Shown here: one piece after another, positions 973 to 64,000 of the stretch | Layout: each line of letters opens with the position of its first letter | How positions within the stretch are numbered: the stretch's first letter is position 1 | Source of the DNA: a bacterium | GTDB lineage: Bacteria > UBA8248 | Reading direction: 5' to 3' | Assembly (NCBI GenBank): GCA_965213625.1 | Contig: CBDBZU010000004.1 | Coordinates: 1,760,001-1,824,000, forward strand | Length of the DNA stretch: 64,000 nucleotides | The notes under the pieces: generated by a model | Databases searched by the model: none | What the model saw: only the letters and a program-made list of their open reading frames with translations | What the model was told of the DNA's origin: nothing | Position numbers and translations under genes: made by a program

Positions 973-2492
973 GGGGCTGTTGAAAAACCCCCGGCATTGT
1001 GATTGGGTGTAATGACACTATCTCGCCCGAGATGGGAGTTCCCTCGATGATAGGCAGCAAGAGGCGCGAGCAGATGGATTTGTTCGTGGCCGGTTCGCTG
1101 GATCGGCTGATCCCCGAGGATCACGTCCTGATGCGCGTGGACCGCGTACTGGATTTGAGTTGGCTTCGTGAGGAGGTGGCGGATTGCTATTGCGCGGACA
1201 ATGGTCGACCGGGGATCGACCCGGAGGTGGCGCTCCGCTTGATGCTTGCGGGTATGTTGCTGGGCTACGTACACGACCGGCGTCTGCTTCGCGAGGCGCG
1301 TGCGCACCTGGCGATCCGGTGGTTCATCGGATACGGGTTGCACGAGGAGTTGCCGCATCATTCGAGCCTGACGCGGATTCGTCAGCGGTGGGGGGAGGCT
1401 CGGTTCAAGGAGATATTCCGCCGGACGGTGCAGGCTTGTCTGGAGGCGAATGTGGCGAAGGGGGAAGTGGTGCACGTGGACGCCTCGTTGATACGCGCGG
1501 ACGTGAGCTGGGAGAGCCTGGCGGCGCACCACGCGGAGAAGGTGATTCAGGAGAATCCCGTCGATGATGAGGTCGGGAAGAAGGGAGGAGGCCGCGGTGG
1601 CGGGGGTCCGGTGAGCCGGACGGACCCGGACGCGCGGCTTGCGCGCAAGAGCGCGCGGGCGGGGTTCGAGCCGAGCTACAAGCAGCACGCGGCGGTGGAC
1701 GATGAGCGGGGTGTTGTTCTCGACGTGTCGGTGACGGAGGGGACGCGGAACGAGCGTGAGATGATGGCGTCCCATATAGAGGCGGTAAGCGAGTTGTCGG
1801 GCCGCGCGCCGGAGATGGTGACGGCGGATTCGGGGTACGCGTACTCGAAGGTTTATGGCGAATTGGAGCGGCGGGGCGTGGAAGCGCTGATACCAGCGAA
1901 GAAGGAACCCAGCCAGAGCCGTGTTCCGCTGCAGTTGTTCCACTACGACGCGCGCAACGAGGTGGTGAAGTGTCCGGGAGGCAAGACGCTGCGCCCCCGG
2001 CAGGCGACGGAGCGGGGGCGCTCCTATGTATCGAAGACGCGGGATTGCGCGGGCTGCGCGCTCCGTGCGGATTGTCTGTCGAAGTCGCGCACGAGCAGGA
2101 CGGTGTTGATTCCGCACGCGTATCCGGCGCTGTTGCGCGCGCGTCGGCGGCATGCGCGCTGGGGGGAGGAGGAGAAGCGTCTCTATGGCCGCCACCGTTG
2201 GCGCTCGGAGGGCTACCACGGCGAGGCGAAGAGCCGGCACGGACTGGGGCGGGCGGTGCGCCGGGGCCTTGCGAACATGCGGATCCAGTCCTACCTGACG
2301 GCGATAGCGGTGAACCTCAAGCGGCTGGCCGCCGCTTTTGCGGCGCGTATATTCGCCCTCTGGACGGCCTGTGCCGCCCGGAGACGCCGGCTGCGCGCAC
2401 ATGGCGCCCTCACGCGCCAATTGGGCTGCCTCCCCGCCGCCGCGTGAGCCGCCAAAACGCCCGCTTCCAACACCGGGTTTTTCAACAGACCC
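973..2492 (+). mobile_element. IS1182-family insertion sequence
   Basis: 18-bp TIRs GGGGCTGTTGAAAAACCC / GGGTTTTTCAACAGACCC (1 mismatch); 5-bp direct repeat CTCAA at 968-972 and 2493-2497. Confidence 0.9.
1047..2447 (+). CDS. IS1182-family DDE transposase
   Basis: GRPGIDP (DUF772-like), VDAS, TDPDA, ADSGY, CxxCxLRxxC, RWRSEGYHGEAK motifs; start could be 999 or 1047. Confidence 0.92.
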   Translation: MIGSKRREQMDLFVAGSLDRLIPEDHVLMRVDRVLDLSWLREEVADCYCADNGRPGIDPEVALRLMLAGMLLGYVHDRRLLREARAHLAIRWFIGYGLHEELPHHSSLTRIRQRWGEARFKEIFRRTVQACLEANVAKGEVVHVDASLIRADVSWESLAAHHAEKVIQENPVDDEVGKKGGGRGGGGPVSRTDPDARLARKSARAGFEPSYKQHAAVDDERGVVLDVSVTEGTRNEREMMASHIEAVSELSGRAPEMVTADSGYAYSKVYGELERRGVEALIPAKKEPSQSRVPLQLFHYDARNEVVKCPGGKTLRPRQATERGRSYVSKTRDCAGCALRADCLSKSRTSRTVLIPHAYPALLRARRRHARWGEEEKRLYGRHRWRSEGYHGEAKSRHGLGRAVRRGLANMRIQSYLTAIAVNLKRLAAAFAARIFALWTACAARRRRLRAHGALTRQLGCLPAAA

Positions 2493-2581
2493 CTCAAGGG
2501 GGGAGTGATTGTTGGACGCTCTGCAAAGGGGGGCGACCCGCAAGGATTTTTTCAACAACCCCTCATCACTCGCGTTTGACC

Positions 2582-3019
2582 TCAACACCATTTCGGGCGG
2601 CGTCCGCCGCGGTAGGGCAGGGCGTGGCCAGTGGCGAGGAGCAGCGTGGCGAGGTCGCGCCCGTCCGCAAGCAGGACGCTCGCCACGACGCGGCGGCCGA
2701 ACTTGCCGTGCGACACGTTGACGAGCCAGACCTGCTCGCCGATGACCCTGCGGACGAATTCGCGCGCCGCCTTGCCCCTCCGGCGTTCATACTCGCCGCA
2801 CTTCGCGCGCCTGATCTCGGGCGTGTCGATTCCCCGCACCCGCACATTGGCTTGCGCGATGATGCCCGGCCACACCCCGGCTTCGACCTTGAAGGTGTCG
2901 CCGTCGATCACTCTTTTCACACGCGCGGGCACGCGCTGCTCGAACGCCGCCGCGTTGGCCGCGAGGGCGAGGGCTATGGTGATGATGCCGCATACGATGA
3001 GTCGGGTCCTGTAGCGCAT
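2582..3019 (-). CDS. Thermonuclease (SNase) family secreted nuclease
   Basis: Signal peptide; RVIDGDTF, VRVRGIDTPE and GKFGRRVVA motifs. Confidence 0.85.
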   Translation of the reverse strand: MRYRTRLIVCGIITIALALAANAAAFEQRVPARVKRVIDGDTFKVEAGVWPGIIAQANVRVRGIDTPEIRRAKCGEYERRRGKAAREFVRRVIGEQVWLVNVSHGKFGRRVVASVLLADGRDLATLLLATGHALPYRGGRRPKWC

Positions 3020-61012: not shown

Positions 61013-62128
61013 ATGTTCATGAACGTATCGGTTAATGCGAGAAAACCCATCGGCCTCGCGGTGGTGGGATGCGGGAAAATCGGGCGGATACGCGCTGAGT
61101 TCGCGCGCCAGAACGCAGCGGTCGAGTGGATGGGGCTGTGCGATATCGACGAGAAGGTGGGCCGAAAGCTCGCCGAAGACGTATCCGCCGATTTCTTCAC
61201 CACCGATTACCGCGAACTCTTAAAGCGTGATGAGGTGAACGCCACCGTTCTCGCCACCTATGCCAACGAGCGGCTGGAACCTATTCTCATCGGCGCCGAG
61301 CGCGGCCACCGGATGCTGATCGAAAAACCCCTGGCGGTGGACGCCGACGTGTCCGAGAACCTGGTGCGCGCGGTCGACGAGGCGGGCATCGACGCCGTTC
61401 TGGGCTATACGCAGCGGTTCCGCCGACGCTTTCTGGTGGCGAAAGAGAAGATACGCTCGGGTGAGTTGGGCGATGTCTCCTCCGTGACGGGCCGCGCCTT
61501 CCTGAACCGCATGAACCCGGTGGCGAATTCCACCAAAACCGAATTCCCAACGAAATTCACCCCCATGGTCATCTCCGGCACCCACAGCGTGGACTTGTGT
61601 TCCTGGCTGCTGGAGGGTCTCCGTCCCGCCGAGGTCTACGCGCGCTCGGTGGACAAGGCGATGGCGCCCTATCTCACAAAAGATTCCACCTTCGCCATCG
61701 TCACCTATGAGGACGGGACGATATGGAGCATGAACGTGAGCTGGGCGCTGCCGCGCGTCTGGCCGGCGGAGGTCTATTCGCTCGAGTTGGGCATTGTGGG
61801 TACGGGGGGTGTACTCACGATAGATGACACGCACCGCGACATCGTCTTCGCCACCTCAGAGCCGCACGAATCCTCGCGCCTGAAACAGGAGCGCAACGTG
61901 AGTTTTCTCACCAGCTATCCGCCGGGGGACCTGGTGTTCGACCAACTCTGGGGGCCCATGCGCGAGGAGACGCGCTCGTGGTTCGACAGGATATATCTGG
62001 GCGTCCAAACGCCGCACACCACCGCGCGGGAAGCGCACGAGAACTTGATGCTGTGCCTGGCGATGGATCACTCGGCCAAAACCGGACGGGCGGTATCGCT
62101 CCCGGTCAAGCCTGAGGATTTTGAATAG
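61013..62128 (+). CDS. Gfo/Idh/MocA oxidoreductase
   Basis: VVGCGKIG, IEKPLA and GYTQRF motifs. Confidence 0.9.
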   Translation: MFMNVSVNARKPIGLAVVGCGKIGRIRAEFARQNAAVEWMGLCDIDEKVGRKLAEDVSADFFTTDYRELLKRDEVNATVLATYANERLEPILIGAERGHRMLIEKPLAVDADVSENLVRAVDEAGIDAVLGYTQRFRRRFLVAKEKIRSGELGDVSSVTGRAFLNRMNPVANSTKTEFPTKFTPMVISGTHSVDLCSWLLEGLRPAEVYARSVDKAMAPYLTKDSTFAIVTYEDGTIWSMNVSWALPRVWPAEVYSLELGIVGTGGVLTIDDTHRDIVFATSEPHESSRLKQERNVSFLTSYPPGDLVFDQLWGPMREETRSWFDRIYLGVQTPHTTAREAHENLMLCLAMDHSAKTGRAVSLPVKPEDFE

Positions 62129-62339
62129 GCGGACACCGCCCCCGCCGGTTCTCTCGAGAATGAGGTCGTCAAGGCGGCCCTCGCCGCAACGGATCTGTTC
62201 ATGGGGGATTGGCGGTAGGCTGGGTGTCTCAGATCGTCATTCCGGCGCAGGTGAAGATTTGCGATGGTTTTGTATGTAGCGCACCCTTCCTGGGCGCGCT
62301 ACATACATGCGTACATGGACGCCCCCCTGGAATGCAAGC

Positions 62340-62560
62340 GGTTTTTTGGGAGGGTTCGGCGCAAAGCGGTTCGACTCAGTCGTACATTCGGCCTCTTCGT
62401 TGCGGCGCTTCGTAACGGCCGCGGGCCCGTATGGAGATGCGCGGGTCGGGTCCGAATCGGCCCGGCGAGCTCGATGGTTCGCTCGTCGCATGTAACTGGT
62501 TGCCCCGACCCCGTCTCGATGACCGTTTGCCCTTACTCCTCCTGTGGCCTGCCCACATTC
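62340..62560 (-). ncRNA. Predicted bridge/seek RNA of the IS1111-type element (boundaries approximate)
   Basis: GGGTCGGG/CCCGACCC stem enclosing TACATGCG and CGGGCCG (target matches); downstream ATGTACGA and CTCCATACG (donor matches). Confidence 0.75.
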
Positions 62561-62588
62561 CTCCCGGCTCTATCCGCGCGCCCGCCGC

Positions 62589-63614
62589 TCAGGCGAGGGG
62601 CGCCGGTTCCCTGTAGTCGTCCTTGTTCCGCATCAGCGCCCACGCGATGCGCGCCATTTTGTTGGCCAGCGCCACCGCGACGAGCATCCTCGGCTTGCGC
62701 GCCAGCATCCGGGCCAGCCACGAACCCGGCGGCGCGCCGCGCCGGAGCGCCTGGCGAATCACCGACATCGCGCCCGTGACCAACAGCCGCCTCACGTCGC
62801 GCTGGCCCATCTTCGATACCCGGCCCAGGCGGGGCTTGCCCCCCGTCGAGTGTTGCCGGGGCACCAGTCCCAGCCAGGCCGAGAAGTCCCGGCCCCGCCG
62901 GAAGTTCTCCATCGGCGGCGCGAAGGCACGGATCGCAGACGCCGTAACCGGACCCACCCCCGGGATACGCATCAGACGCCGCGCCTCCTCGTCCGCGTGG
63001 ACGCTCGCGTGAAGCCGACTCTCCAACTCCCCGATCTTCCGGCTCAGACCCGCGATTTGCTCCAGAAACACCTCGCCCAACTCCCGAACCGCCACCGGCA
63101 GACCCGATTCCGCTCCCCGAACCGCCGCCGCCAGACGCGTGAGGCCCACCGGACCCTGCCGCGCGACCACCCCGAACTCCGCCAGGTGTCCCCGCAACGC
63201 GTTGATCGTCTGCGTCTTCTGGCGCTTCAGCAAATCCCGCGCCCGGAACAGCATCCCCTCGGTCTGCTGCTCCTCGCTCTTCACCGCCACGAGATGCATC
63301 GTCGGTCGTGAGGCCGCCTCGCAAATCGCCTCCGCGTCCGCCGCGTCGTTCTTGTGGCGCTTCACGTACGGCTTCACGTAGGCCGGCGGCGCGAGCCGAA
63401 CCTCGTGGCCGAGCTTCGCAATCTCACGGCCCCAGCGGTGCGCCCCCGCGCACGCCTCCATCGCCACCACGCAGCGCGGCTGTTTGGCCAGGAAGTTCAG
63501 CAGACCCGCCCGACCGAGCTTCTTGCGGAACGCTACCGAACCGTCCGCGCGCGCCCCGTGGAGTTGAAAACTGTTTTTCGCCAAGTCGATGCCGATGATG
63601 TAGACTCCTTCCAT
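62589..63614 (-). CDS. IS110-family DEDD recombinase/transposase
   Basis: GIDLAK, MEAC, KNDAADA (DEDD); IPGVG; QHSTGG catalytic Ser; RBS AAGGAGG. Confidence 0.95.
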   Translation of the reverse strand: MEGVYIIGIDLAKNSFQLHGARADGSVAFRKKLGRAGLLNFLAKQPRCVVAMEACAGAHRWGREIAKLGHEVRLAPPAYVKPYVKRHKNDAADAEAICEAASRPTMHLVAVKSEEQQTEGMLFRARDLLKRQKTQTINALRGHLAEFGVVARQGPVGLTRLAAAVRGAESGLPVAVRELGEVFLEQIAGLSRKIGELESRLHASVHADEEARRLMRIPGVGPVTASAIRAFAPPMENFRRGRDFSAWLGLVPRQHSTGGKPRLGRVSKMGQRDVRRLLVTGAMSVIRQALRRGAPPGSWLARMLARKPRMLVAVALANKMARIAWALMRNKDDYREPAPLA

Positions 63615-63690
63615 GGATGCCTCCTTCCGGGCGGTGTGTGACGTTGCCTCGCCACATTCTAAACTGCCGGAAGGGGGCGTCCACCCCATC

Positions 63691-63737
63691 GGCCCGACCG
63701 GTTCGTGGCTTGCGGGTCGCATTTATGCGACCCCTAC
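63691..63737. repeat. Right part of the REPIN interrupted by the IS110
   Basis: GGCCC..GTTCGTGGC..CGGGTCGCATTTATGCGACCCCTAC, homologous to the right part of 47612-47677. Confidence 0.8.
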
Positions 63738-63877
63738 ACAGGTACTTCGGAATTTCCTGGGTTCCGTCAAACCCTCTTGGCTTGGTTAATTCTAACGCTG
63801 GAATGACGGCAAACTTCGGTTCGGGGATACTCGTACGGGCGAACCTAATGTCCCTACATGGACGCCTACCAAACATA

Positions 63878-63903
63878 GGACAGGCACGGGTGCCTGTCCC
63901 TAC
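63878..63903 (-). repeat. GTAG REP (GTAGGGACAGGCACCCGTGCCTGTCC)
   Basis: Same family as 45444 and 49795. Confidence 0.7.
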
Positions 63904-64000
63904 GGCGAGATTTCCTGTTTGTCGCGAAGGCGGAAGTCCTCCCATCGTCAGAATATCGCTCCGCGCAAAGGTGTGACCAATGATGCACGCGCCCCCTGAA

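Follow-up and report, generated by a model that had tools for sequence, protein, structure and literature searches.

An intact IS1111-group insertion sequence of a UBA8248 bacterium and the predicted guide RNA matching its REP target

Introduction

RNA-guided recombinases of the kind discussed here were described in 2024. In a stretch of 64,000 nucleotides from a bacterium of the lineage UBA8248 (hereinafter the window: assembly GCA_965213625.1, contig CBDBZU010000004.1, positions 1,760,001 to 1,824,000 of the forward strand; positions below are those of the window unless another sequence is named), we find on the minus strand an intact insertion sequence (IS) of the IS1111 group that very probably chooses its site, in a repetitive extragenic palindrome (REP) of the host, by means of an RNA encoded in its own 3′ noncoding region. 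For this group, an RNA from downstream of the gene, transposase-bound seekRNAs and a REP target (in ISPa11) have already been published (PMC11187229, PMC11208160), as have natural and experimental reprogramming and the prediction of donor and target loops in IS1111 bridge RNAs (PMC11187229, PMC11208160). Because these features of the mechanism are in print, what the present element adds is a new IS1111 member with its own CG-core guide set. An earlier note on this DNA, made from its letters, had cautioned that the class was known and that the member and its guide set might be new; the caution was well placed, the class having been published before.

Two described IS1111 elements offer the most direct precedents. 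ISPa11 of Pseudomonas aeruginosa likewise inserts at a fixed place in the REP of its host, and its transposase is reported to co-purify with long and short RNAs from downstream of the gene, with the same order of guides as that found here (PMC11187229). It differs in host, REP and guide set; the comparison is one of descriptions, and RNA binding by the present element is assumed by analogy with it. ISEc11 shares the subterminal inverted repeats and the downstream noncoding region, which in ISEc11 is essential and encodes the seekRNA (PMC11187229). According to the same description, it forms a circle with a junction promoter and can be reprogrammed, natural reprogramming being seen in its relative ISXne4 (PMC11187229). 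Its target is short and linear, in contrast to the REP of the present element.

IS621 (IS110 group; PDB 8wt6) resembles the present element in combining a DEDD RuvC-like domain with a Tnp domain bearing a Ser/Thr-Gly nucleophile loop (PMC11208158), in having a two-loop RNA with both strands read by each loop at a common core dinucleotide, and in a REP target, which for IS621 is in Escherichia coli (PMC11208158, PMC11208160). However, its protein is distantly related (E 2.3e-8 over the C-terminal domain), its RNA lies in the left end upstream of the gene rather than in the right end, the guide order within each loop is reversed, the core is CT rather than CG, and its subterminal repeats measure 2–3 bp as against 11 bp. 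Because of the right-end RNA, the reversed guide order and the 11-bp repeats, the present element is not of the IS621 type; it would work like a bridge recombinase but belongs to the sister group. The multi-copy ISPpu9 and ISPpu10 (IS110 family) of Pseudomonas putida KT2440 likewise occupy REPs. In ISPpu9 the transposase gene is followed downstream by a gene for a small RNA, and the element yields modular circles, while ISPpu10 has a hybrid junction promoter (PMC12288879). Relative to these accounts, the downstream RNA of the present element is distinguished by its matches to the target.

Results

Copies and insertion site in the host genome

The host genome (4.15 Mb in 4 contigs) contains five copies of the element: three are full-length and 100% identical, and two, at different loci, lack the same 345 bp in frame, with 7 bp of microhomology at the deletion boundaries. 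All five have (C/A)GGGC-CG as left flank and CG-CATGTATG as right flank, with one copy showing the left-half mismatch (AGGGC). Joined with a single CG, they give the 14-mer GGGCCGCATGTATG, which occurs uninterrupted nine times in the genome, each time in a REP-type palindrome or REP compound. The empty target that the earlier note had deduced from the junctions is hence a real sequence, and the sharing of this target among copies, which it had named as a check, holds throughout the genome. The REP itself is abundant, with 78 sites matching GGG[CT]CGCAT[AG]TATG and 54 matching TGTAGGGG[CT]CGCAT. Since the flanks agree in every copy and the uninterrupted target stands in REPs, the IS inserts at one position of the host REP and ends with CG on both sides. 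The alternative that the conserved flanks are part of the element was rejected, given that the joined flanks stand uninterrupted in REPs.

The identity of the three full-length copies and the presence of one deletion derivative at two different loci suggest that the element is intact and evidently recently active. An orthologous empty site for the copy in the window was not readable in any of seven same-genus loci, in which the neighboring gene is conserved at 90–92% and the intergenic region is not conserved.

The predicted guide RNA

The noncoding DNA of the element amounts to 75 nt upstream of the gene (63689–63615) and 277 nt downstream of it (62588–62312), which is the layout of the IS1111 group. 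Within the downstream region a two-unit fold was obtained from an alignment (A1) of 53 of the 58 distinct guide sets described below, with L034, L062, L067, L091 and L092, whose right parts are poorly aligned, left out. A search for covarying columns then added a closing helix, P1 (62525–62522 with 62370–62367), so that the predicted RNA measures ~159 nt, inside the range of 145–170 nt published for long seekRNAs (PMC11187229). The six helices, with 27 pairs, are 96.1% paired as compared to 88.7% in column shuffles, and 16 of the 27 pairs show compensatory changes; such values are reached in 0 of 500 shuffles, and pairing breaks down once partners are shifted by 1–3 columns. The covariance model R1, derived from A1, recovers all five copies at 124.8 bits together with the two siblings ISB and ISC (see below) and one truncated relic, and nothing else in the genome.

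The first unit, which would bind the target, is framed by an 8-bp stem in which GGGTCGGG (62511–62504) pairs with CCCGACCC (62450–62443); this stem is 95% paired across the relatives, with compensatory changes in 6 of its 8 pairs. It further comprises a CC/GG pair (62499–62498 with 62453–62452) and an inner hairpin (62485–62481 with 62470–62466), and the two target guides occupy opposite strands of its internal loop. The second unit has an invariant GGCC/GGCC stem, with CTCCAT 5′ of the stem and hairpin and ATGTACGA 3′ of them. The guides follow the order given for IS1111 seekRNAs, the segment complementary to the top strand preceding, on the 5′ side, the one identical to it (PMC11187229). The four guide segments singled out in the earlier note all lie in the loops of this fold, and the coordinates it gave for them, for the 8-bp stem and for the junctions are each correct when read on the minus strand.

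The segment from the stop codon to helix P1 (62526–62588, minus strand) holds, across the relatives, a nearly invariant GTAAGGGCAAA-type motif, which could be a processing site or a protein-binding site.

Covariation of guides with targets and ends

To the elements of the host genome we added 80 relatives from other genomes, of 57–80% protein identity, and aligned their left ends, noncoding regions and right ends. The resulting 82 rows (80 loci and two elements of the host genome) include 14 with no complete flank, aligned noncoding region or unambiguous letters, which were dropped; of the 68 usable rows, 10 repeat a guide set already counted, leaving 58 distinct sets, 57 of them outside the host genome. 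Across these the scaffold is conserved and four short segments vary.

Three of the four segments follow their own element. The 3′ target guide agrees with its own left flank in 4.02 of 5 non-core bases on average (28 of 58 perfect) as compared to 1.33 for others; the 5′ target guide agrees with the complement of its own right flank in 5.52 of 8 nt at the best register, against 3.81; and the 3′ donor guide agrees with its own right-end extension in 4.55 of 5 nt (50 of 58 perfect), against 3.63. In each of these comparisons, 0 of 10000 permutations reach the observed mean. For the 5′ donor guide (xxCCAT), the corresponding figures with the 6 nt of the left end are 4.86 and 4.64, with 5 of 10000 permutations. 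In 43 of the 58 sets (28 TG, 13 CG and 2 AG), the two junctions and the two core-bearing guides all share one core dinucleotide. Because of this fourfold agreement, the core of the clade, mostly YG (CG or TG, with few AG), appears to be read by the RNA too. Covariation between guides and targets among homologs, proposed earlier as a check, is thus seen for three guides and the core, which follow their own flanks or right end across the 58 sets.

The fourth segment, CTCCATACG at 62436–62428, requires a correction of the earlier note, in which the whole of it was read as an imperfect complement of CG+ATGGGG. Its CTCCAT portion can pair with the left end as claimed. However, pairing of the following ACG with the core is not supported, since among the relatives the triplet that follows CCAT does not change in step with the core.

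In 2 of 73 rows (L030 and L046) the final ~70 nt of the element are repeated in tandem after its right end, the repeat starting directly after the donor-guide-encoding DNA in L030 and at the beginning of the 5′ donor strand in L046. By its sequence, the DNA that encodes the guide mimics the donor site, and it may be a substrate of recombination itself.

The transposase

The protein matches PF01548 (DEDD_Tnp_IS110; E 2.3e-12) and PF02371 (E 5.5e-23) in Pfam. Against the NCBIfam model NF033542, 'IS110 family RNA-guided transposase', it scores 316.5 bits, the cut-off being 140; it is an IS110-family DEDD transposase. In an alignment with 74 relatives, D10, E53, D90 and D93 are each conserved in at least 97%, and GLVPRQHSTG at residues 249–258 has the form of the GL-P----S(t)G motif given as typical of IS1111 transposases (PMC11187229). 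By order and motif, these positions seem to correspond to the catalytic residues D11, E60, D102, D105 and S241-G242 reported for IS621 (PMC11208158). The relatives with solved structures in the PDB are distant, namely the ISCro4 transposase (E 2.5e-11) and IS621, both matched mainly over the C-terminal domain. A distant DNA search of a plasmid collection revealed no named close relative; the best full-length relatives there are 65–69% identical and annotated merely as 'IS110 family transposase'. Together with the IS1111 layout, the published guide order and the covariation, the matches to PF01548, PF02371 and NF033542 support the assignment to the RNA-guided recombinases made in the earlier note.

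Proposed mechanism

The anatomy of the element, the distribution of its copies, the fold and the covariation of three guides and the core are observed features; by analogy with ISEc11, ISPa11 and IS621, the element most likely moves as follows. The element would be excised as a circle joining its right end (..CCATGTA), one CG and its left end (ATGGGG..), and the RNA (~62525–62367) would bind the transposase. The first unit would hold the target, where the top strand of CG+CATGTA would be bound by TACATGCG and the bottom strand of CGGGC+CG by CGGGCCG. The second would hold the circle junction, where the bottom strand of ATGTA+CG+A would be bound by ATGTACGA and the top strand of ATGGGG by CTCCAT. 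The DEDD/Thr-Gly active site would then exchange strands at the shared CG, so that the element lands between two copies of CG in the REP. The specificity for the target would amount to ~5 + 2 + 6 nt.

Siblings and natural retargeting

Two siblings reside in the same genome. ISB, which is 76% identical, has the right end ATACA for ATGTA, and its donor guide is changed likewise. ISC is interrupted; its left flank agrees with its left guide in 5 of 5 positions, and a perfect unoccupied match to both of its guides is found at C4:1090790. Further IS1111-type remains lie at C4:4129761-4132490 (ISC), C4:4124823-4125042, C4:907402, C4:692369 and C4:3391308; they comprise the sibling interrupted by ~1.3 kb within its gene, a 3′ relic whose target unit is without its 5′ half, and isolated sequences resembling ends.

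Relatives at E values up to 1e-50 are present in 12 of 23 genomes of the genus. Among 15 distinct near-full-length same-genus copies, the left flank matches its guide in at least 4 of 5 positions in 12 and the right flank in at least 6 of 8 in 10. In several siblings at 84–90% identity, both target guides are coherently retuned to other REP variants; a side branch has them retuned to donor-guide DNA in a sibling IS (see below). In G008 the left guide CGGGTCG and the right guide TATATGCG accompany the flanks GGGT-CG-CATATATG, and in G011 the guides CAGGTCG and ATATATGTCC accompany AGGT-CG-GACATATA. In G002 the left guide CGGGACG goes with GGGA-CG, and the right guide is not retuned (TACATGCG, matching its own flank in 5 of 8 positions). 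The element in the window might belong to an ongoing series of natural guide exchanges in a single genus, a proposal that we regard as tentative and rather doubtful; if true, the series would give the pairing rules of IS1111 (~5 + 2 + 6 nt, YG core) without experiment.

Among relatives represented in RNA libraries, a C-to-T change (minus strand) is found in the 5′ target guide at 62492 (X2/X4 and X9), and in X9 another in the 3′ guide at 62460. Such changes make the predicted target GGGT-CG-CATATA, which is the commonest REP variant of the host genome.

In two same-genus genomes an element of the clade lies inside the noncoding region of a sibling IS (L132 in G005:C139, at ~1445–3000 on the reverse strand of the locus, and L131 in G022:C139 likewise). 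The insertion point falls precisely at the boundary of GGCC stem and donor guide in the host IS (..AAGGC-CG-GATACACGAATG..). The guides of the nested element fit this site, being GAGGCCG and GGTGTATCCG, the latter predicting CGGATACACC; in G022 the fit is offset by one base. Judged from these matches, the cases look like targeted insertion into another element's guide-RNA gene, and, if targeted, they would constitute IS-against-IS insertion disabling a competitor's guide RNA. A limited literature search returned no description of nested or IS-on-IS targeting tied to bridge RNA, seekRNA or IS110.

Anatomy, promoters and expression

The features of the element and its surroundings are collected in Table 1. 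The element occupies 63691–62312, being 1380 bp when counted with one CG (alternative bounds 63689–62310). The span of 62300–63737 assigned earlier does contain it, but its limits were too wide, taking in flanking REP sequence. The left junction, with CGGGC, CG and ATGGGG, and the right one, in which CCATGTA ends at 62312 and is followed by CG and CATGTATG, stand as first read. The subterminal repeats, found by a longest-open-reading-frame and inverted-repeat search applied to this element alone, fall at 11 bp inside the range published for the group (7–17 bp, usually 11–13 bp; PMC11208160, PMC11187229). The terminal extensions and one core come to 6 + 4 + 2 = 12 bp, a figure that depends on where the repeat is taken to end and that exceeds by two the sum of 10 in the published family description (7 bp left and 3 bp right, occasionally 6 + 3; PMC11187229). 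Such lengths are customary in the family rather than diagnostic of it.

Table 1. Positions of the element, its predicted guide RNA and the flanking REP sequence in the window
Feature	Position	Strand	Remark
Upstream REP unit (TGTAGGGG..GCGACCC)	63714..63738	-	Forms a REP doublet with the interrupted target REP
Spacer between both REP units, 17 nt	63697..63713	-	Sequence read
Left target half CGGGC	63692..63696	-	(C/A)GGGC in 5/5 copies; identical to 3′ target guide
Core dinucleotide CG, left copy	63690..63691	-	Junction read
Left terminal extension ATGGGG, 6 nt	63684..63689	-	Would be right side of donor in circle junction
Left subterminal inverted repeat TGGACGCCCCC, 11 bp	63673..63683	-	Inverted repeat with 62316-62326
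Sigma-70-like promoter match TGGACG, 16 nt, TAGAAT	63656..63683	-	Upstream of transposase gene; consensus match only
Transposase gene, 341 residues + stop, GGAAGGAGG upstream of ATG	62589..63614 (codons 63614-62592, stop 62591-62589)	-	
Predicted seekRNA/bridge RNA, ~159 nt	62367..62525	-	Closed by helix P1
Predicted target-binding unit	62443..62511	-	8-bp stem, CC/GG pair and inner hairpin
5′ target guide TACATGCG	62487..62494	-	Complementary to top strand CG+CATGTA
3′ target guide CGGGCCG	62458..62464	-	Identical to top strand CGGGC+CG; would pair with bottom strand
5′ donor guide CTCCAT	62431..62436	-	Complementary to left end ATGGGG, 5 Watson-Crick pairs and one G-U
Donor unit inner stem	62390..62427	-	GGCC 62427-62424 with GGCC 62393-62390; hairpin GCGGC 62422-62418 with GCCGC 62406-62402
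3′ donor guide ATGTACGA	62380..62387	-	Identical to right-end extension, core and first base of left end
TTGCAT, possible -35 box	62332..62337	-	TTGC at the aligned place in 21/26 alignment rows (by eye)
Right subterminal inverted repeat GGGGGCGTCCA, 11 bp	62316..62326	-	Inverted copy of left repeat
Right terminal extension TGTA, 4 nt	62312..62315	-	Would be left side of donor
Core dinucleotide CG, right copy	62310..62311	-	Junction read
Right target half CATGTATG	62302..62309	-	Present in 5/5 copies
REP-related palindrome continuous with right target half	62271..62306	-	Similar uninterrupted arrangement at C4:3407729

A scan for promoters and terminators found one promoter-like site, against 0.2 expected, in the left end, and no terminator-like site. 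On circularization, joining of the ends would create the hexamer TACGAT 18 nt downstream of TTGCAT in the right end; the integrated form reads TACGCA at that place. Such an arrangement would fit the junction promoters reported for ISEc11 (PMC11187229) and IS621 (PMC11208158). RNA libraries contain contigs of relatives that are 90–99% alike and lie wholly within 62339–62580, with lengths of 152 nt (X10), 222 nt (X4), 224 nt (X2) and 240 nt (X9). X2 and X4 are apparently one data set filed twice, and contigs over the gene occur in both as well.

Upstream of the REP doublet, a second type of palindrome (GTAGGGACAGGCACCCGTGCCTGTCCTA) is found at 63870–63897 on the minus strand, and similar GTAGGGACAGGC..GCCTGTCC units are present in the orthologous intergenic region of G005.

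Discussion

Several observations weigh against a choice of site by RNA and are set out here with the alternatives on which they bear. RNA binding, the circle and catalysis are carried over from ISEc11, ISPa11 and IS621. The RNA-library contigs show neither strand, ends nor transcription and come with no DNA run for comparison, on which account they give a weak hint of expression over the noncoding region. Folded alone, the 280-nt noncoding region does not exceed shuffled sequence in stability (z = +0.64; 142 of 200 shuffles as stable), the fold becoming clear from the alignment only, and an Rfam scan of 61500–64000 at E values up to 1 gave no match. Moreover, one of the four core positions disagrees with the others in 15 of the 58 relatives, in part through misalignment of divergent right ends. 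The target guides of ISB match their own flanks poorly (3 of 5 and 3 of 8), a 90%-identical copy (L127) has a mismatch adjoining the core, and ISB, L127 and L148 either tolerate mismatches or have accumulated them.

A further point against it is that the 5′ donor guide barely covaries. CTCCAT fits the left end, but that end hardly varies among the relatives, and the guide is therefore assigned its role by analogy. This, along with the report by Siddiquee et al. that a target-matching seekRNA of 70–100 nt sufficed for ISEc11, with the role of the long form left open (PMC11187229), leads to the alternative that only the first unit guides, as a short seekRNA of ~62511–62443 and a few bases more. 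The second-unit matches would then serve otherwise: the protein might read the ends via the subterminal inverted repeats, which at 11 bp are long enough for recognition by a protein, and the second unit might act in processing or stability of the RNA. However, the 3′ donor guide tracks the right-end extension in 50 of the 58 sets, and the core as well, a pattern hard to account for unless they pair; both units lie within helix P1, which covaries; and donor loops were predicted in IS1111-group bridge RNAs by Durrant et al. (PMC11208160). We accordingly regard guidance by the first unit alone as unlikely, though it is the strongest competitor to guidance by both units.

A further observation to be weighed is a block of 42 bp, consisting of the upstream REP and the 17-nt spacer, that is identical in the left flanks of the copy in the window (63697–63738) and the two deletion derivatives (from C4:592729 and from C4:2343142) and is unique in the genome. 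The spacer has three exact genome matches, all of which adjoin copies of this IS (three of the five occupied sites), and none elsewhere. Simple cut-and-paste at CG does not explain this sharing; the block either travelled with the element or was spread by recombination. Along with the deletion in the transposase gene of two copies, it would accord with copies that are no longer mobile and were spread by duplication of REPs or REPINs, or by recombination, rather than by transposing themselves. Yet the right flanks of the three copies diverge beyond the 8–9 nt of the target half common to all copies, and the left flanks of the other two copies are unrelated. The three full-length copies, 100% identical, keep reading frame and catalytic residues intact, and the occurrence of the same deletion derivative at two loci fits mobilization in trans. 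Passive spread of immobile copies is therefore, in our view, very improbable. Least probable of all, to the point of being nearly negligible, is that the protein reads the REP hairpin or sequence and the guide-like matches are functionless leftovers of captured target: REPs are structured, many recombinases read structure and one copy tolerates the left-half mismatch AGGGC, but relatives at 57–90% identity insert in unrelated sequences with loop segments changed to suit, the matching segments stand at fixed places of a conserved fold, and experimental reprogramming has been published for IS1111 members (PMC11187229).

Site choice by an RNA of the element's own 3′ noncoding region leaves the picture of how IS1111 elements work unchanged. 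It confirms that guide sets of the IS1111 type can be read from sequence alone, and the group gains an intact member, evidently active in recent times, that has a CG core and a defined 13–14-bp REP target. The comparative collection of 58 guide sets with their flanks allows the positions of target, donor and core to be mapped. Since Rfam has no model that finds this RNA, the set should be useful for annotating such elements, and also for choosing new orthologues for programmable recombination.

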